Shown here: in pieces, positions 15,984-24,728 of the stretch | Layout: each line of letters opens with the position of its first letter | How positions within the stretch are numbered: position 1 is the stretch's first letter | NCBI GenBank assembly: GCA_000092065.1 | Contig: CP000592.1 | Reading direction: 5' to 3' (one strand) | DNA: 64,000 nucleotides | Source of the DNA: Ostreococcus lucimarinus | Taxonomy: Eukaryota | Translations under genes and position numbers: made by a program | Notes under the pieces: generated by a model | Told to the model about the DNA's origin: nothing | Seen by the model: only the letters and a program-made list of their open reading frames with translations | Databases searched by the model: none

Positions 15984-16991
15984 ATGCCCGACCCACCCCC
16001 CTCGCCTCCCGACGACGCCCCGGCGCGTCACGCGTTCAACGCCGACCGCGCCGTCGCGAGCGAGCGCGCTGAAACCGCCCGCGCGACTCCCGCGAGCGAT
16101 GTCCCAGCGTCCACCAGCCGCCTCGTCGGTTTCGCCTCGAGCACCGTCGAGCGCGTCGACGCCGCGTTCAAGGCGTCCACGGTCGGACTGATGACTCGAG
16201 AAGATTTCGTCAAGCGTCAGGACGAGATCGAGGGCGCGATGGCGAGGGAAAAGGCTGAGAAGGAGGAGGAGGCGCGAACGCGGGCCGAGGAGGTCAAGGC
16301 GAAGCGGAAGCGAAAACGGGCGACGAAGACGTCGCATAAATTATCGTTCGGCGACGAGGAATCAGACGAAGTCGCGGAGGGTGAAGAACTAGTCGTAAAT
16401 AAGGGCTTCGGGCTCGGGAAGAACCCGAACGTGAACACAGAATTTCTCCCCGACCGCGCGAGAGAGGAGGAGGAGCTTCGAGAGCGACGAGCGATAGAGG
16501 AGGAATTTCTCACCAAGTCGCGCTTGGAGAGGAACGAACCCGTGATCATCACGTATAGTTATTACGACGGCTCGCGCAGAGCCGGCGGGAAGATCAAATG
16601 CGTCAAAGGCGATACCGTGGAGGCGTTTCTCGGCAAGGTGCGCGCCGAGCTCTTGGCCGACGGCGAGCGCACCGTGCAGCGAGACATGCGTCACTGCGAC
16701 GTCTCCGGGATGATGTACGTCAAAGAAGATTTGATCATGCTCCCAGATTTAACTTTCCACGAGCTCATCACGACCAAGGCGCGCGGGAAATCCGGACCGC
16801 TGTTTCGCTTCGACGTCAAGGACGACGTTCGCCTCCGCGGCGGCGCCAACGTCGAGGTTGAAAATTCCCATCCCGGCAAGGTCATCCTCCGCTCTTGGTA
16901 CGACAAGAACAAGTCCATGTTTCCAGCGAACCGTTGGGAGGTTTTCGAGCGCGGCAAATCGTACGCCGAGGAGGGCTACCGGATCAAGTGA
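15984..16991 (+). CDS. XAP5: XAP5/FAM50 family nuclear protein
   Basis: The protein has a charged coiled N-terminus. Its C-terminus, KVILRSWYDKNKSMFPANRWEVFERGKSY, matches the FAM50A/XAP5 signature (SRSWYEKNKHIFPASRWE). Confidence 0.8.
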   Translation: MPDPPPSPPDDAPARHAFNADRAVASERAETARATPASDVPASTSRLVGFASSTVERVDAAFKASTVGLMTREDFVKRQDEIEGAMAREKAEKEEEARTRAEEVKAKRKRKRATKTSHKLSFGDEESDEVAEGEELVVNKGFGLGKNPNVNTEFLPDRAREEEELRERRAIEEEFLTKSRLERNEPVIITYSYYDGSRRAGGKIKCVKGDTVEAFLGKVRAELLADGERTVQRDMRHCDVSGMMYVKEDLIMLPDLTFHELITTKARGKSGPLFRFDVKDDVRLRGGANVEVENSHPGKVILRSWYDKNKSMFPANRWEVFERGKSYAEEGYRIK

Positions 16992-17124
16992 CTTTTCGTC
17001 CCGGTCGTCCGCACGCCGCGCCTCGCGCGACGGCGCGGTCCCGACACTAGCCCATCGCCCATCGGCGCGTAATTCACCATTCACCTCGTACACGTCTCGC
17101 GCCAACCCCTCCGCGCCTCCTCGA

Positions 17125-18561
17125 ATGGTTCGCGGTAAAGTCCTCGTCGTCGCCGGCTCCGACTCGGGCGGCGGCGCCGGCGTCCAAGCCGACGTCAAGG
17201 CGATCCTCGCCCACGGCGCCTTCGCCACGACCGCCATCACCGCGCTCACCGCTCAAAACACCACGGGCGTGCACGGCGTCCACGCCGCACCGTTGGAGTT
17301 CATCGAGGCGCAGATCGAGGCCGTGGTGACGGATCTACCGCCAGACGCGTGCAAGACGGGGATGCTGGCCAACGCGGCGACGACGCGCGCCGTCGCCGAC
17401 GCGATCGAACGACATCGATTGACCAACGTCGTCGTGGACACGGTGATGCTGGCGAAAGGCGGCGCGAGCCTGCTCGAAGCGGAGGCGCTGGAGGTGATGC
17501 GGGATCGATTGGCGCCGCTCGCGACGGTGATCACGCCAAACGTCCCGGAGGCGGCGGCGCTGCTAAACTTGAGCGAGGAAGAGTTCGTGATGGAGACGAT
17601 GGCGACGCGGGCGAAGGAGTTAGGGAAGTTAGGGTGTCAGTGGGTGTTACTTAAGGGTGGGCACGTCAAGGATGACGCGGAGATGTCGGTGGATTATTTG
17701 TACGAGGCGAACACGGGGAGGACGACGACGTTCTCGAGCGCGAGAATAGATACGAGGCACACTCACGGGACCGGGTGCACGCTCGCGAGCTCGATCGCGG
17801 CGTCGTTGGCGCAAAGGTATGACGTTCCTACGGCGGTGCATCGAGCGAAGAGGTACATCTCGGAGGCGATTCGAACGAGTCCGGGGTACGGCGCGGGACA
17901 CGGGCCGTTGAATCATTTGCCGTTTCACGCCGGCGCGGCGGCGCGTGGAAAGCGGTTCGATCCGCGATGTTTGAAACTTTATCTCGTCAGCAGTGAGGCG
18001 TTGACCATGGATAAGCTTCGACAGGCGCTCGAGGCGGGAGTGACGATTGTGCAGATGCGCGATAAGGATCCCTCGACGAGGGCCTTGATCGAACGCGCCA
18101 AGGCGATGAAGGCGGCGTGCGATGAATACGGCGTCCCGTTCATCGTCAACGATCGTGTCGACGTCGCCATCGCGTGTGACGCCGATGGTGTGCACTTGGG
18201 TCAGTCAGACATGACTTGCGCGGAGGCTCGACAAATTCTTGGTCCGAATAAATGGATCGGAGTGAGCTGTCGAGAGGTGTCTTTGGCGCGCCAAGCAAGC
18301 GCCGACGACGCCGATTACATAGGGTGCGGCGCGTGTTTCGGCACTAATTCCAAGGGTGACGCTAAAGTCATCGGCTTGGATGGTGTCGGGAAAGTTATCG
18401 CGGTAGCTCGCGAGCTTTCCTTACCAGTCGTCGCCATCGGGGGCGTCTCGCTCGAAAACGCCGCGTCTGTTCGAGCGACGGGCGCCGACGGAATAGCCGT
18501 CATTTCCGCCGTCGCCAACGCGGCGGACGTGAAAAAGGCGGTCCATAAGTTGCTGCATTAG
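17125..18561 (+). CDS. TH1: bifunctional hydroxymethylpyrimidine (phosphate) kinase / thiamine-phosphate synthase (ThiD-ThiE fusion, TH1-like)
   Basis: The N-terminal half (KVLVVAGSDSGGGAGVQADVKA..GMLANAATTRAV) is a ThiD/PfkB-type HMP-P kinase. The C-terminal half (VSSEALTMDKL..IVQMRDKD..VNDRVDVAIACDADGVHLGQSD..AIGGVS) is a ThiE TMP synthase. The first ATG in the ORF is at 17125. Confidence 0.9.
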   Translation: MVRGKVLVVAGSDSGGGAGVQADVKAILAHGAFATTAITALTAQNTTGVHGVHAAPLEFIEAQIEAVVTDLPPDACKTGMLANAATTRAVADAIERHRLTNVVVDTVMLAKGGASLLEAEALEVMRDRLAPLATVITPNVPEAAALLNLSEEEFVMETMATRAKELGKLGCQWVLLKGGHVKDDAEMSVDYLYEANTGRTTTFSSARIDTRHTHGTGCTLASSIAASLAQRYDVPTAVHRAKRYISEAIRTSPGYGAGHGPLNHLPFHAGAAARGKRFDPRCLKLYLVSSEALTMDKLRQALEAGVTIVQMRDKDPSTRALIERAKAMKAACDEYGVPFIVNDRVDVAIACDADGVHLGQSDMTCAEARQILGPNKWIGVSCREVSLARQASADDADYIGCGACFGTNSKGDAKVIGLDGVGKVIAVARELSLPVVAIGGVSLENAASVRATGADGIAVISAVANAADVKKAVHKLLH

Positions 18562-18600: not shown

Positions 18601-19188
18601 CTACGCGTGCGCGGCGAAGAAGTCACGTTCAAGACGAATCGCCTCGACGTAATTATCGACGGCGCGCTCATCCTCGATTTCTTCGGGTAATAACGACTCT
18701 AAACGACACGCGAGGGATTCCATCTCATCCCCACCGTACGCCTCGAACCATTCGGCGTACGGTGACGTCCGCGGGTCGGGAATTCCGTCTACACCCGCAT
18801 CCGCTCGCGTGAGAAAGTACCGACCGACGTACGCATACAGTCGCATGCACGGAATCATCCCGGCGACCAACTCGAGCGAAGATTTCCCGTGCAAAGACTC
18901 CAGAAACTCCACGTACGCCCGGCTCGCGGCGTGCACCTCGACGGCGTCCACGTCCACGCCCCACTTTTCACACGCCGCGGAGTGTAACTTCAGCTCGTCG
19001 AGCACGCCGCCGATGAGTTCGTGAAAGACTCTCTGCTCGTCGACGTCCGCGGCCAGGCGAAGCGCCTGCGCGTACGCTCGATTGAAATGAAACAAGAAGT
19101 ACGCGTCTTGCGACAGATAGCGAAGATACTTCTCGCGAGGGAGCTCCCCGGTGGCCATCTGATGCACGAACGACCCGCTGGCGGTCAT
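18601..19188 (-). CDS. tenA: TenA/thiaminase-II family protein (aminopyrimidine salvage); N-terminus may lie in an upstream exon
   Basis: The ORF (GELPREKYLRYLSQDAYFLFHFNRAYAQALRLAADV..) has the TenA/PqqC-like helical pattern. The frame upstream of ATG 19188 still encodes TenA-like residues (ALWSRPDVAKYVAE) but has no ATG before a stop. It is convergent with TH1, with only about 39 nt between stop codons. Confidence 0.75.
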   Translation of the reverse strand: MTASGSFVHQMATGELPREKYLRYLSQDAYFLFHFNRAYAQALRLAADVDEQRVFHELIGGVLDELKLHSAACEKWGVDVDAVEVHAASRAYVEFLESLHGKSSLELVAGMIPCMRLYAYVGRYFLTRADAGVDGIPDPRTSPYAEWFEAYGGDEMESLACRLESLLPEEIEDERAVDNYVEAIRLERDFFAAHA

Positions 19189-19930
19189 CTCCGCGACGTA
19201 TTTCGCGACGTCGGGGCGACTCCACAGCGCTCGCGCCGAATCGGGCCGAGCGGGCGTCTGCGAGCGACAACCACGTCACCGAAACCCGTCAGTCGTCTCG
19301 CAAACGCGCGCGAAACCGATAAAAACGCCTCGCGCGAGCATTCCACGACGCGCGCGTCGACCGACGACCGTCGCGCCGCGTCTGTCTCCGCGCCGCCGCC
19401 GTCGCCGCGTCGCGCCGCCGCGCGCGCGCGCGCGCGTCGCGCCACCGCCGTCGAGGCCGTCCTCCGTCCGCCCGACGCGCGACGCCCGAACGTCAAAAAC
19501 CACGATCGCCACCCATCGCCGCGTCGTCGCGTCGTTGAGAACGCCCCCGCGCGACGCGCGCCGCCTCCGAGCGTCCCGCGCGCCGCCCGCGCGTCCCCTT
19601 CGTCGCCCGCCCTCGTCGTCGCCGCGCGCGCGCACCTCGCTCGCGGTCGTCGACGGATCCATCGCGCGCGCGTCGTCCGTCGCGCCGCGCGTCGCGCGTC
19701 GCCGCGCGCGCGTCGCGCGTCGTCGCGCGTCGTCGCGTCGTCGTGTGCGCGACGGACGCCGCGCGGGTTCGCCATCGATCGCGCGCGAACCTCGACGCAT
19801 CGATCGATCGCGTCGCTCGAAACGCGTCGAAAGGCGTCGATCGCGCTCGATCGATCGCGTCGATCGCGCCATCGATCGGCATCGATCGCGAGGGCGACGG
19901 CGGGCGTCGATCGCGCCATCGATCGCGCAC

Positions 19931-20134
19931 GCGCAGGCTGGACAAAACGTAATCACGCATTTCGAGCTCATCGGCTTGACGAATGCTGAATACGTAGGAA
20001 ACTCTTTGAGGTATACCACTTAACGCGGATCCAAAGTTGAAACCACTAAAACGGCCCCAAGAGTTTCCTGTGTATTCAACGTTCGTTAAGCCTATGAGCT
20101 TGAAATGCGTGATCGCGTTTTGTCCAGCCTGCGC
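19931..20134. repeat. inverted pair of an ~85-nt dispersed element (copy F 19931..20010 forward, copy G 20058..20134 reverse), spacer about 47 nt
   Basis: GCAGGCTGGACAAAACGTAATCACGCATTTCGAGCTCATCGGCTTGACGAATGCTGAATACGTAGGAAACTCTT recurs as its reverse complement about 50 nt downstream at roughly 85% identity. It shares the GGCTGGACA..CTCATnG..(T/C)(G/A)AATACGTAG(G/A)AAAC cores with the copies at 27178..27500, 43405..43455 and 53978..54055. Confidence 0.7.
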
Positions 20135-20311
20135 TTTCGGCGGCCGCCCGTGGTTTCCGCGGTCGGTGGTCGACCTCGCCTCGAAACCGGCGCCGACGAT
20201 CGGCCGCGCGAAACGAAACCGGGCGATCGATCGATCGACGATCGATGCGCGCGCGGCGCGTCGAACGCGTCCGCACACCGCGCTCGGCGAGTGGCTTCCG
20301 ACGACGCGCGA

Positions 20312-20400
20312 CGGCCGACGGCGCGCGAATCGAGCCTGAGAACACGTAAATCGTTTGAACTTGTATCGGGGTAATACCTGCGTAAGGACTGAGCCGGCGA
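20312..20400 (+). ncRNA. candidate thiamine pyrophosphate (TPP) riboswitch aptamer in the 5' leader of the SSS transporter gene
   Basis: Read directly: CCUGAGAACACGUAAAUCGUUUGAACUUGUAUCGGGGUAAUACCUGCGUAAGGACUGAGCC. It carries the J3-2 CUGAGA, the UUUGAAC(C/U)UG segment, a P5 hairpin CGGG-GUAAUA-CCUG (consensus CUGG-AUAAUG-CCAG) and CGUAAGGA (consensus CGUAGGGA). The changes preserve pairing (CUUG with UAAG; CGGG with CCUG via G-U). The transporter ATG is about 70 nt downstream at 20468. Confidence 0.65.
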
Positions 20401-20467
20401 ACGACGCGCGAGGGGTCGCGCGAACGACGAGGACGCGGGGGTTAGGGCAAATCCCGGAGAAACGACG

Positions 20468-22339
20468 ATGGCGAACTACGGGTGGTTGTACGCGCTGATA
20501 TCGCTGTACGGGGTCGCGTCCGGCGCGGCGGCGACGTTCGCGCACCGGCGAAATAAGGCGGCGGCGAACGACGCTGGGGACGCGATGCGGAACCACTTCG
20601 GCGGCGGGAAGGGACTCGGCGGCGTCGCGCTGTTTTTTACGCTCTCGGCGTCGCTGTTTTCGGCGTATTCCGTGGAAGGGATCGCGTGGGAGGCGTGGTT
20701 TAAGGGATGGTTCGCCACGCGATGGATTCCAGCGGGCGTCGGGGTGTACATGGGATTTTTGATCATGGCGCCGCGACTGAACGCGCTCGGAAAATTGCGA
20801 GGGTATCTCACGCTGAGCGAAGTCGTCTACGACAGGTTCAGCGCGCCGAATTCTCGGCATCAACTCACGGCGCACGCGCTGCGAGTGATCACCTGGGGGT
20901 GTTTGTTGCTTCCAATCTTCTGCTACCAAATTTCGCAGTTTGTGTCGATGGGTAAAATCGTCGAGGCGTTCACCGCCGGCGCCATCTCGGAGACGGGCGG
21001 GGTGTTGATCTTTGCCTTGATCATGATCGCCGTCGAGGCCGTCGGTGGTCTTCGTGCGGTGGCGTATACGGACATCATTCAAGGATGCATGCTCATCGTC
21101 GGTTCGCTGATCTTCTTCATCGCGAGCGGGGTGGAATTCGGTGGATTGTCGCGAGCGAAGGATTACTTCGCCGCGGCGTCACCCCCCAAGTTTCAAACCA
21201 TTCCCAAAACGGACGGGTCTTGGTCCATCATATCGTACACCTCGTTCACGCTTCGCGTGTCCGTCGCGGCGACGATGTTTCCGCACCTCGCCATGCGATT
21301 GTTCGTCGCGAAGGATCGTAAAATGCTCCAACGCGGTTTGGCGGGGATGAACTTTACCTTTTTCTGGGTCCAACTCTCCACCATGATCGCCGGTTGGACC
21401 GCGGTGTACGCCCTGCGTGATGTCGCCACTGTGGCGGACATCGGAAATCAACAATCAATCTTTGGAAAACTCGCACTCCAGCTGAAGAACGCTTCGGCGT
21501 TCGGGGACTTCTCCGCGTCGCTCTTGGTTCTCGCCGCCTTCGCGGCGATGATATCCACCGCCGACTCTGGTTTGCTCGCCTTCAGTACGATGTTTGTGCG
21601 CGACATTTACCAGCCCTACGTTCAAAAAGTGTTCCCAAAAGCGCGTGTCGATGGAAACGCGCTGAAAATCGTTGGATTGGTGTCCTCCCTCGCCGCTCTC
21701 GGTGTCGGTTTGGGGCTGTCCATCGTCAACCTCCGCGAAGGCAAACCCGACATCACTGGGTTGTTCTCCATTCAAACCGTCACCCCGATTCACGCCGTTC
21801 CAGCAGTATGGGGTGGGATCCACCTTCACTGGCTCTCCGGCGAAGCCGTCCTAGCCGGTATCGTGGCTGGTGTCATCTCCGGCTTGGTCATGGTTCTGGA
21901 CACCGAGTTCAACGTCAAGCGGAACCTCGGCCTCGATGAACACTCCACGGGGTGGAACACCGCATGCTTTGCGTTTTTGATAAACGTCGGCGTCGTCATT
22001 CTCGTCACACTCTTGGAAAAGTTTGTCGTCCCCGCCGCGAAATCCGCGGCGACCGCGCAAACGAACACGCTGTTCATCGGTAAAAAAGTGGACAAGATGC
22101 TCTCCAACCCGATCCCGTGGTTCTTCATGATTTTCACCTTGCTCGCGGCGTGTCCGTTCTGGTACAAGCCCGGGAGTCAAGTGAAATACGTCGGCGACAT
22201 GGCGGCGTGGGGGTTTACGAGCTTGTTCTTTTCCTTCATCCTCGCGCTTCAAGTATCGGCGATGTACATGTATCGCTGGGAAGATTTCGTCCCCGAAGGC
22301 GAAGACGAGAAATCCGTCGACAAGGCGGGTCAGGTGTGA
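20468..22339 (+). CDS. sodium:solute symporter family (SSF/SSS) transporter, putative thiamine or thiamine-precursor transporter
   Basis: 623 aa with about 13 hydrophobic transmembrane segments and the SSF-like pattern (GGGKGLGGVAL..SAYSVEG). It is riboswitch-associated and flanked by thiamine-metabolism genes. The substrate is an inference. Confidence 0.85.
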   Translation: MANYGWLYALISLYGVASGAAATFAHRRNKAAANDAGDAMRNHFGGGKGLGGVALFFTLSASLFSAYSVEGIAWEAWFKGWFATRWIPAGVGVYMGFLIMAPRLNALGKLRGYLTLSEVVYDRFSAPNSRHQLTAHALRVITWGCLLLPIFCYQISQFVSMGKIVEAFTAGAISETGGVLIFALIMIAVEAVGGLRAVAYTDIIQGCMLIVGSLIFFIASGVEFGGLSRAKDYFAAASPPKFQTIPKTDGSWSIISYTSFTLRVSVAATMFPHLAMRLFVAKDRKMLQRGLAGMNFTFFWVQLSTMIAGWTAVYALRDVATVADIGNQQSIFGKLALQLKNASAFGDFSASLLVLAAFAAMISTADSGLLAFSTMFVRDIYQPYVQKVFPKARVDGNALKIVGLVSSLAALGVGLGLSIVNLREGKPDITGLFSIQTVTPIHAVPAVWGGIHLHWLSGEAVLAGIVAGVISGLVMVLDTEFNVKRNLGLDEHSTGWNTACFAFLINVGVVILVTLLEKFVVPAAKSAATAQTNTLFIGKKVDKMLSNPIPWFFMIFTLLAACPFWYKPGSQVKYVGDMAAWGFTSLFFSFILALQVSAMYMYRWEDFVPEGEDEKSVDKAGQV

Positions 22340-22437: not shown

Positions 22438-23262
22438 CTACTCGTAGCTTTTTAGACTCGCCAGCGCGTCAAAGAATGCCACTTGGAAAGAAGCAGGTCC
22501 GGAAAAGTTCCCTAACCGAACAACGTCAGTCGCAATCCGTCTGTACACTAGGCACGAGGCTCGCAACGCTCTCGCATTCGCTAGTCCCGATCCAGGAACC
22601 GTCGCCGCCAGGAAGGCTCCGAGGCAACAACCCGCGCCAGAAAATTTCTGCAGAATCGGCGCATCGAACTCATGAACGGCTTCGTTTCCGGGCGCACCAT
22701 CGACCCGAGTTGATCGCGGTGTGGTAACATAATCCACGCTCCCAGTCATCACAATCATCGCGCCAAGCTTTTCCGATAGTTGATTCAGCGCGTCGAAAAC
22801 GTCTTTTTCCGCGCAGTCGCCGTCGGACGATTCCGGCGTAACGCTCAAATTCGCCCCAACGCTACCGTTCACAGCAAACAACTCAATCAACGCTTCGATT
22901 TCACTTCGATTTCCCTTCACCACAGTGCGCATCGGTCGCACATCGCTCGCGTCCCGAGCGACGGCGCCGCGCCGTTCCAACCACTCCTTTACCGTTCTCC
23001 CTCTCGTCTCCAGTCCACACCCCACGGGATCGACCACGACGTTTTGCGCGCTGAGCACGGCGTTTGCGATCTCCGCCGTCGTGGGCGTGCCGAAATTCAA
23101 CACGGTCACGTCGCAGAGCGATGCGGTGAGCGCGGCTTCCTCGTAGGTGGTGCATCCCATGCACGGTTTCGCACCGACGGCGAGCACGACGTCCGCGGCT
23201 TTGGACGCCGAGCACGCGTTCATGATGAGCTGAACCTTCGGACTCGCGCGCGCGTCGTCCAT
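22438..23262 (-). CDS. thiM: hydroxyethylthiazole kinase (ThiM)
   Basis: VQLIMNACSASKAADVVLAVGAKPCMGCTTYEEAA aligns with the ThiM N-terminus (LVHSITNNVV..LALGASPVMA), and the C-terminal GAGCCLGAFLAA matches the ThiM GAGC motif region. It is convergent with the transporter gene, with about 98 nt between stops. Confidence 0.85.
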   Translation of the reverse strand: MDDARASPKVQLIMNACSASKAADVVLAVGAKPCMGCTTYEEAALTASLCDVTVLNFGTPTTAEIANAVLSAQNVVVDPVGCGLETRGRTVKEWLERRGAVARDASDVRPMRTVVKGNRSEIEALIELFAVNGSVGANLSVTPESSDGDCAEKDVFDALNQLSEKLGAMIVMTGSVDYVTTPRSTRVDGAPGNEAVHEFDAPILQKFSGAGCCLGAFLAATVPGSGLANARALRASCLVYRRIATDVVRLGNFSGPASFQVAFFDALASLKSYE

Positions 23263-23511: not shown

Positions 23512-23877
23512 TTACTTCTTGGACTTCTTCGGCAACAACACGGAGTGGATGTTCGGCAAAACACCACCGGCCGCGATGGTCACCGTACCGAGGAGCTTGG
23601 AAAGCTCTTCGTCGTTGCGGATCGCCAACTGAATGTGGCGCGGCACGATGCGGGACTTCTTGTTGTCTCGGCTCGCGTTGCCCGCGAGTTCGAGCACCTC
23701 CGCGCACAAGTATTCGAGCACGGCGGCCAAGTAGACCGGCGCACCGGCACCGACGCGCGTGGCGTACTTGCCAGCCTTCAAGTAACGGGCGACACGACCG
23801 ACCGGGAATTGCAAGCCCGCCTTGGCGGATCGGCTCGTGGCCTTCTTGCCGGACTTTCCTTTACCGCGACCAGACAT
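23512..23877 (-). CDS. H2A: histone H2A
   Basis: [42 protein letters not shown] is canonical H2A. Confidence 0.95.
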
Positions 23878-24389
23878 TTTCGTGAAAGACTGCGAAGCGC
23901 GCGAAACGACGACGAGCGGTCAGTGCGCGTTCTCTCGCGGCGGCGACGACGGCGACGAGACGAGCGCGAAAACAATCAACGCGCGCGCACGTACGTTGTG
24001 TGTTGTGTGAGTAAGCGAACGGGCGTGTGCACGCGCGTCGAGTAATGACGCTCGCGCGCCATCGCGCGCCCACTCGACGAGTTTTCGGAAACGAAGCGCC
24101 GCGCGGCGCACTAAGTTTCCATACGATTGGGTGCGTTTTCGCGTTTGACACGAAATTGTGAATTATGATTGGCTTTTTGCTCGTAGTAGTAAACAGTATG
24201 TATCTGTTTCGTGCAATTACACAAAACGCGGTGATTCTATTGGCTGAAAAAGCACGAGTCACTCCAGTCGACGAGTCCTGACCCGTGAACTCGACTCCCC
24301 GAAACGATGAGTCGATTTCGCGAAAAATCGCCCGTTGCCGTCGCGCGTCCCGGGCGCGCGCCATTCCACGACGCGAACGCACGAACACG
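23878..24389. promoter_or_regulatory. bidirectional H2A/H2B promoter region with CCAAT boxes
   Basis: This is a divergent histone pair. Three ATTGG (CCAAT on the minus strand) occur at about 24126, 24178 and 24238 in an AT-richer island within GC-rich DNA. Confidence 0.55.
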
Positions 24390-24728
24390 ATGGCCAAGAA
24401 ACCCGCGCAAAAGAAGCCCTCGGGCGCCAAGAAGGTTGGACGCAAGTCCAAGTCCGAAACCTACAAGATCTACATCTACAAGGTCTTGAAGCAAGTGCAC
24501 CCGGACACCGGTATCTCCTCCAAGGCGATGTCCATCATGAACTCGTTCATCAACGACATCTTCGAGAAGATCGCCACGGAAGCCGCCAAGCTCGCGCGAT
24601 ACAACAAGAAGCCGACGGTCACGTCCCGCGAAATCCAAACCGCGGTCCGATTGATCTTGCCGGGTGAACTCGCCAAGCACGCCGTCTCCGAAGGCACCAA
24701 GGCTGTCACCAAGTTCACCTCCGCGTAA
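24390..24728 (+). CDS. H2B: histone H2B
   Basis: [71 protein letters not shown] is canonical H2B. The track ORF starts at an alternative codon at 24285; the first real ATG is at 24390. Confidence 0.95.

Follow-up and report, generated by a model that had tools for sequence, protein, structure and literature searches.

A probable TPP riboswitch aptamer in the AUG-free 5' leader of the intronless SSSF transporter gene of Ostreococcus lucimarinus

How can a riboswitch in a 5' UTR work in a eukaryotic gene that has no introns? The SSSF gene of Ostreococcus lucimarinus raises this question. It lies in a stretch of 64,000 nucleotides from contig CP000592.1 (the window), which we analyzed as a whole, and a TPP aptamer precedes it on the same strand, ending 73 nt upstream of its ATG. 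The aptamer would tie the TPP status of the cell to the expression of a putative transporter of vitamin B1 or a precursor, in a B1-auxotrophic picoeukaryote that is among the most abundant of the ocean. To the existing record we add a helix assignment for the O. lucimarinus copy, which was left unresolved in a table published in 2014, and the observation that the SSSF aptamers of the Mamiellophyceae form a clade just under the Rfam cut-off for TPP riboswitches. We also add a set of leaders with neither upstream AUGs (uAUGs), conserved splice sites nor a conserved expression platform. These leader features sharpen the question with which we began, and in it lies the residual value of the locus.

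SSSF is a single ORF of 623 aa at 20468-22339 (+) and belongs to the sodium:solute symporter family (Pfam PF00474, E = 1e-30). Its product is identical at 621 of 623 positions to O. lucimarinus XP_001420601. That record, XP_001420601.1, falls in the 90% cluster of the window protein and is annotated 'SSS family transporter: sodium ion/pantothenate [Ostreococcus lucimarinus CCE9901]'. Over the 300-nt leader, metagenome contigs encoding exactly XP_001420601 differ from the window at a single base (-297), and the SSSF start codon is confirmed by the conserved N-terminus NYGWLYALI. TH1, with HMP-P kinase and TMP synthase (ThiD and ThiE) domains (PF08543 and PF02581), is encoded at 16858-18561 (+), the coordinates being those of the ORF as listed. 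It is followed by a TenA/THI-4 family gene at 18601-19188 (-) (PF03070). On the other side, convergent with SSSF, lies ThiM, coding for hydroxyethylthiazole kinase (22438-23262 (-), PF02110). An XAP5 gene, indicative of a eukaryote, adjoins the thiamine gene cluster. The Pfam assignments of TH1, TenA and ThiM, which flank the aptamer, bear out the thiamine context that the first-pass annotation had read from the surrounding genes, as does the PF00474 match its description of the downstream gene as a transporter of this family. The synteny of TH1, TenA, SSSF and ThiM is kept in O. tauri and in metagenome loci. SSSF, a member of this cluster, putatively transports thiamine or one of its precursors.

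A TPP riboswitch at the O. lucimarinus SSSF gene is already known, as it is recorded for XP_001420601 in the work of 2009 and 2014. McRose et al. 2014 (PMC4260697) divided the riboswitch-associated PF00474 genes into SSSF, SSSP and SSSQ, found both SSSP and SSSF in Ostreococcus spp. and Micromonas CCMP1545, noted that SSSF is collocated with TH1 and THIM, and placed all the Ostreococcus riboswitches in 5' UTRs. Their Table S2 lists O. lucimarinus SSSF (XP_001420601) with 0 introns and a riboswitch in the 5' UTR, and credits Worden et al. According to McRose et al. 2014, the element was proposed by Worden et al. 2009. A footnote to the same table adds that, for O. lucimarinus and O. tauri, the structures had not been resolved and none were given. 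No later paper characterizing the Ostreococcus copies was found in the literature searched. As far as the earlier proposal is described in McRose et al. 2014, the published riboswitch and the element studied here share the gene, the 5'-UTR position, the TH1/TenA/ThiM neighborhood and the single exon. We see no substantive difference between them; the length of P3 (44 nt) and the 4-nt insertion found where P3a would be only add detail. Only the detailed helix assignment of the O. lucimarinus copy appears to be unreported.

The most recognizable part of the element is CCUGAGAACACGUAAAUCGUUUGAACUUGUAUCGGGGUAAUACCUGCGUAAGGACUGAGCC at 20334-20395 (+), the 3' end of which is 73 nt before the SSSF ATG at 20468, in line with the roughly 70 nt given in the first-pass annotation. 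The full TPP aptamer runs from 20282 to 20394 (+) and comprises P1, P2, the 44-nt P3, CUGAGA, P4 and P5. The string reported in the first-pass annotation is thus present, but the element begins about 30 nt further 5' than had been thought, and 20312, where it was taken to start, falls inside P3. In the window, each of the 22 consensus pairs is either canonical or G-U, as seen in the pair list and a constrained fold. The covariance models align over their full length, with P1 closing both the P2-P3 arm and the P4-P5 arm in a three-way junction. This RNA has the architecture of the TPP three-way junction together with all of its sequence motifs. A degenerate motif made up of CUGAGA, UGAACYUG and GCGUARGGA has a single match in the 64-kb window, and 100 dinucleotide-preserving shuffles gave none.

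P1 is formed by GCUCGG at 20282-20287 (+) and CUGAGC at 20389-20394 (+). The pairing of the 5' strand with the 3' strand is found in the constrained and minimum free energy (MFE) folds and in the model alignments, and the 3' strand is placed by the MFE fold, a model alignment and the pair list. P1 may be extended by CCG at 20278-80 with CGG at 20395-97 (+). The 5' strand of P2 (CGA-G-U, 20288-20292 (+)) is part of an invariant CGAGUGG and is assigned to P2 in the cmscan alignments of orthologs. Its 3' strand is A-AA-UCG at 20348-20353 (+), placed by the cmscan alignment and the pair list, and the AUCG within it is invariant in the leaders. The P2 pairs are C88-G53, G89-C52, A90-U51 and U92-A48 with G91 unpaired (last two digits of the 202xx and 203xx positions). 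P3, by the fold, is a hairpin of 44 nt at 20293-20336 (+), closed by GGCU/AGCC and longer than those of the orthologs. The J3-2 CUGAGA, the pyrimidine-binding pocket, occupies 20336-20341 (+) and is found in every ortholog leader; its C closes P3. Next, where the optional P3a stem would stand, comes ACACGU (20342-20347 (+)), which contains the 4-nt lineage-specific insertion. The J2-4 junction UUUGAA (20354-20359 (+)) matches the UuGAA consensus of cmscan, and its GAA is invariant.

The pyrophosphate-sensor arm (20360-20386 (+)) matches the consensus CCUgAUccGGuUAAUaCCggCGuAGGGA with compensated changes. P4 pairs CUUG with UAAG (20360-63 with 20383-86 (+)), and its second pair is U-A for the consensus C-G. 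J4-5 (UAU, + strand) separates the 5' strand of P4 from that of P5, and P5 pairs CGGG with CCUG (20367-70 with 20377-80 (+)) under the L5 loop GUAAUA (20371-76 (+)), which fits the loop pattern (U/G)UAAU(A/U). J5-4 is CG at 20381-82 (+). The first-pass annotation had named CUGAGA, P5 and its loop correctly. What it called the pyrimidine sensor, UUUGAACUUG, is instead the end of P2 with J2-4 and the 5' strand of P4, and the pyrimidine sensor is the P2/J3-2/P3 arm. Thermodynamic stability is uninformative in so GC-rich a context: the aptamer region folds no better than its shuffles (z = +0.83). The consensus fold of the window aptamer lies 5 kcal/mol above the MFE.

Rfam alone gives a much weaker picture. 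A scan of the window at the default gathering thresholds returned no match. When 20150-20550 was scanned with an E-value threshold, the best family was RF00059 (TPP) at 20301-20406, with 29.6 bits and E = 5.5e-4, over the full length of the model (positions 1-105). The gathering cut-off of RF00059, a curation threshold rather than a biological feature, is 54.3 bits and is not reached. The score is low because cmscan puts P1 and P2 inside the long P3, and because of the length of P3, the missing P3a and the 4-nt insertion. The helices proposed by cmscan (P1 GCGCG/UGAGC, P2 ACGG/UCGU and P3 GGCGC/GAGCC), with one mismatch each in P1 and P3, were rejected, as the true P1 and P2 are 30 nt further upstream. 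That placement follows from orthologs with a short P3, in which the invariant CGAGUGG provides the P2 5' strand. In these Rfam itself aligns CGAGU as P2 5' and the hairpin as P3, and scores the alignment at 52.7-53.2 bits (E ~1e-7). The first-pass annotation had held that a sub-threshold score with no P1 helix would count against the aptamer. The score does fall below the cut-off, but there is a 6-bp P1 (GCUCGG/CUGAGC), which emerges when the alignment of the long P3 follows that of the orthologs.

The low score is common to the relatives. All 11 SSSF-leader sequences tested, the window and ten orthologs, score below 54.3 bits, the window at 29.6 and the orthologs at 29.7-53.2. The whole SSSF clade of the Mamiellophyceae lies below the cut-off and is therefore missed by default Rfam annotation. 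The sequences in question, window 20301-20406 and loci L001, L003, L006, L010, L012, L014, L016, L017, L031 and L067, span Ostreococcus-, Micromonas- and Mantoniella-type sequences.

We compared the leader with those of orthologous genes. A search with the transporter protein returned an exact match in a Logan assembly, the O. tauri protein (81% identical) and some ten other relatives with identities of 74-80%, among them a Mantoniella antarctica transcript. Every ortholog locus that was fetched has CUGAGA followed by GAACUUG and GCGNAAGGA at 150-215 nt upstream of the start codon. A pattern scan of metagenomes was loose: most of its matches were due to chance, and the gaps it allowed did not admit the 15-nt spacing of the window itself. 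Among the matches listed, L031, L067, L073 and L119 were useful after filtering. In 12 of 12 leaders the invariant CGAGUGG lies upstream of a variable hairpin ending in CUGAGA. The aptamer is found at the same place in every ortholog examined and its structure covaries, so the conservation on which the first-pass annotation had let its case depend is borne out.

The covariation was measured on alignment A1, a plain MAFFT alignment of 12 distinct leaders including the window that was not fitted to structure. In A1, 83.6% of the cells at the consensus pairs can pair, compared with 31-48% when the partners are slid by 1-3 columns, and 12 of the 26 pairs have changed on both sides, which 0 of 500 shuffles matched. 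A MAFFT alignment without the window (A2) was dropped, as the 5' ends of O. tauri and L015 were misaligned, and the model-derived A3 was used instead. A covariance model built from A1 (R1) served to realign the orthologs without the window. In the model-fitted alignment 88.6% of the cells are paired and 18 of 26 pairs have changed on both sides; we gave more weight to A1 because a model-fitted alignment leans towards the structure. A leave-one-out model (R2), built from only the 13 orthologous sequences with the window excluded, matches the window at 20275-20403 with 57.0 bits and E ~1e-12, and has no other significant match on either strand of the 64 kb. With RF00059 as the best Rfam family, this agrees with the reading in the first-pass annotation of a TPP aptamer in the leader of the transporter.

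Covariation extends to all helices. P1 covaries at six of its six pairs in the orthologs, its sequence differing in almost every lineage with the pairing always kept. The second and third pairs of P5 have changed on both sides (A-U/G-U/G-C and G-C/A-U), and the basal pair of P2 is A-U, G-C or G-U among the leaders. In P3 the pairs G-C, G-C/G-U and C-G are conserved and the interior is not. Identity of the core, from CUGAGA to the 3' strand of P1, to the orthologs is 70-81%, about that of the first 600 nt of the coding sequence (72-81%), compared with 22-64% in the P3 interior and 4-56% in the leader after the aptamer. The helix-preserving substitutions noted in the first-pass annotation are thus real, and the core is conserved at the level of coding sequence while the rest of the leader is not. 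The RNA is under purifying selection with compensatory changes across the Mamiellophyceae. Within the population, 15 contigs show no polymorphism at 20181-20442, a 262-nt block containing the aptamer, and their SNPs cluster on either side of it, at 20093-20180 and 20443-20455. As overall diversity is low, the invariant block is weak evidence of constraint.

What the aptamer does for SSSF is suggested by the leader and by a relative. The leader that holds the aptamer is free of AUGs and runs on into the coding sequence without a break. No AUG occurs between P1 and the start codon in the window leader or in nine orthologous leaders. The probability that the unalignable part after the aptamer is free of AUG by chance is 0.08-0.61 per leader, with a product of ~2e-6. 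Control by an upstream ORF was rejected, as a uAUG is found in no leader. In the Mantoniella transcript the whole aptamer is in the 5' UTR, contiguous with the coding sequence. After the aptamer, the window leader (20395-20467 (+)) is without AUG and unconserved among orthologs; no conserved sequence was found downstream of the aptamer in the ortholog leaders, and for this reason no expression platform is recognizable. Thiamine withdrawal raises SSSF mRNA more than 10-fold in M. pusilla CCMP1545 (McRose et al. 2014, PMC4260697). This response does not show that a 5'-UTR aptamer regulates by itself, because the M. pusilla genes also carry 3'-UTR aptamers. On this evidence 20282-20394 (+) is quite probably a TPP riboswitch aptamer in the 5' UTR of O. 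lucimarinus SSSF, acting as a TPP-dependent OFF switch. When cellular TPP is high, the aptamer would bind TPP, P1 would close and SSSF expression would fall. Such an OFF switch would match uptake and salvage to need.

It could be instead that the aptamer is real and conserved without being a gene-control switch in this place, either as a relic or in another role. There is precedent in diatoms, where well-conserved predicted TPP aptamers 'do not operate as riboswitches' (Llavero-Pasquina et al. 2022, PMC9544697), as was shown experimentally for THIC and SSSP aptamers (PMC9544697). We found no expression platform conserved downstream of the aptamer, and no experiment in Ostreococcus in the literature searched. 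However, the diatom aptamers are in 3' UTRs, a different arrangement, and the orthologous SSSF mRNA of M. pusilla does respond to thiamine deprivation. Moreover, covariation keeps P1 to P5 across Ostreococcus-, Micromonas- and Mantoniella-type leaders, which implies that the fold is still being selected. A conserved aptamer that does not regulate has to be taken seriously, although it is unlikely.

If SSSF is controlled by the aptamer, as we favor, splicing is the route to consider, as all characterized eukaryotic TPP riboswitches work via splicing (McRose et al. 2014, PMC4260697). The first-pass annotation had speculated that a GUAAAU at 20346-20351 within the aptamer is a TPP-regulated 5' splice site, as in the fungal and plant switches. 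The hexamer does resemble a 5' splice site, and AG dinucleotides follow it before the AUG. It owes its existence, however, to a 4-nt insertion that is confined to the O. lucimarinus lineage. The window reads ACACGUAAAUCG, and all other leaders read ACAC-AUCG or similar. The insertion, at 20344-20347, occupies A1 columns 73-76, which are gapped in all 11 other sequences. It appears as the insert 'guaa' in the R1 and R2 alignments, at the site of the optional P3a stem, and is fixed in 15 O. lucimarinus-type population contigs. Together, the insertion and the 44-nt P3 make the window copy the most divergent of the set. At the position of GUAAAU the orthologs read CACAUCG, and a GU is absent there from all 11 other leaders, which have ACAC-AUCG or AAUAAAUCG.

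The rest of the leader points the same way. SSSF is recorded with 0 introns (McRose et al. 2014), and the Mantoniella transcript keeps the aptamer unspliced and contiguous with the coding sequence. No leader has a uAUG for alternative splicing to include or remove, and joining 20345 to sequence after the downstream AGs creates no AUG. A splice from GUAAAU to AG would therefore have no evident regulatory consequence. In the leaders compared, no conserved splice site lies in or next to the aptamer. The proposed 5' splice site finds no support, and a splicing-type switch at this gene is very improbable.

The step from aptamer to repression of SSSF is most likely made without splicing. Ligand-dependent roadblocks to translation have a precedent in synthetic aptamers placed in eukaryotic 5' UTRs. 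By analogy with these, and from the absence of splice sites, upstream ORFs and a platform, we suggest that the compact aptamer, stabilized by its ligand early in the 5' UTR, may hinder loading of the 43S complex or its scanning to the first AUG. The poorly translated SSSF mRNA may then decay. We advance this specific route, obstruction of 43S loading or scanning by a ligand-locked aptamer, only tentatively. The more general proposal is a natural eukaryotic riboswitch that dispenses with splicing, in which an aptamer in an intronless 5' UTR without uAUGs blocks the 43S complex or triggers decay; this we regard as conceivable, at somewhat short of even chances. To our knowledge, non-splicing control of this kind in eukaryotes has been documented so far for synthetic aptamers alone. 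The idea is not new, as McRose et al. 2014 (PMC4260697) already raised it in writing that such riboswitches 'may operate in an as yet undocumented manner'. The present set of AUG-free leaders, with neither a conserved platform nor a conserved splice site, makes a splicing-free mode cleanly testable.

The ligand could also be another thiamine-related compound, such as a precursor that SSSF transports, rather than TPP. Ostreococcus relies on exogenous precursors (PMC5322297), SSSF is a putative carrier of thiamine or a precursor, and the loop at the P3a site, beside the pyrimidine pocket, is enlarged. The insertion lies, however, at a site where the Rfam model already allows an optional stem, and the TPP consensus is kept in both arms, including CUGAGA, the J5-4 GCG, P4/P5 and the UAAU loop. 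With both sensor arms so preserved, a different ligand is hardly to be expected. That GC-rich intergenic DNA resembles the TPP consensus by chance, as the sub-threshold Rfam score, the empty default scan and a fold no more stable than shuffles might suggest, is excluded by the leave-one-out match, the absence of the motif from the shuffles, and the covarying aptamer at the same place in every ortholog examined.

The TPP aptamer at SSSF can be set beside better-known systems. With the TPP riboswitches of RF00059 it shares P1, a P2-P3 arm with CUGAGA, a P4-P5 arm with GCG and the UAAU loop, and an association with thiamine genes, but it has no P3a, its P3 is long (44 nt) and P4 has a U-A pair in place of the consensus C-G. 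The eukaryotic switches of plant THIC (3' UTR) and of fungal NMT1 and THI4 (5' intron) are built on this aptamer fold, likewise without a P3a, and fungal examples share the U-A pair in P4 (McRose et al. 2014, PMC4260697). Those plant and fungal switches act by alternative splicing in multi-exon genes, whereas SSSF is intronless and its leader has no uAUG and no conserved splice site. In bacteria, the switches of the thiV/SSSP type, e.g. in SAR11 and Marinobacter, also place a TPP aptamer directly upstream of a PF00474 transporter and are likewise linked to thiamine (McRose et al. 2014, PMC4260697). These bacterial switches work by transcription termination or by masking a ribosome-binding site, unlike a eukaryotic leader for cap-dependent scanning, which has no ribosome-binding site. 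SSSF is also a PF00474 subfamily other than SSSP.

Micromonas-like contigs from Tara have a further aptamer. In L014 (2452-2571 (+)) and L013 (3159-3277 (+)) a second TPP aptamer follows just past the SSSF stop codon, and this 3' aptamer scores 41.5 bits with Rfam and 28.2 bits with R1. Aptamers in both the 5' and the 3' UTR, as in these two loci, are the arrangement given by McRose et al. 2014 for M. pusilla CCMP1545. A 3'-UTR copy of this kind was considered for the window and rejected, as only 98 nt separate the stop codons of SSSF and ThiM and leave no room for it. With models R1 and R2 no second aptamer copy was found in the 64-kb window.

On the TenA side, a 244-aa ORF at 19185-19919 (-) overlaps the TenA ORF by 4 nt and has no Pfam match. 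In population contigs, gene callers assign it 159-364 aa, and TenA is 180-302 aa in other species. Either an N-terminal extension or a wrongly split gene model may account for the 244-aa ORF. Regulation of the divergent gene on this side by the aptamer was also considered and rejected, since the aptamer is on the SSSF strand and ~360 nt from the start of that gene. A GATC-rich, repetitive and palindromic stretch at 20215-20250 (GATCGATCGATCGACGATCGATGCGCGCGCG) occupies part of the intergenic DNA from which the TenA-side ORF and SSSF diverge. Similar CGATCG runs are also found inside the P3 of O. tauri.

A CACA- or CACAAC-like motif lies 5-12 nt upstream of P1 in most ortholog leaders, in flanks that are otherwise poorly conserved. 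In the window it is CGCACACC at ~20268-20276, and L002, L005, L013, L015, L017 and L138 have it at the same relative position. The motif may be an initiator or another transcription-start element, although the assembled Mantoniella transcript extends ~25 nt beyond it. Past ThiM, synteny with L139 (6045-6410 and 6923-7261) predicts a divergent histone pair at 23512-23877 (-) and ~24335-24667 (+), with an H2A C-terminal domain on one side. The order of ThiM, the histones and an AMP-binding enzyme is kept in O. tauri and the population contigs.
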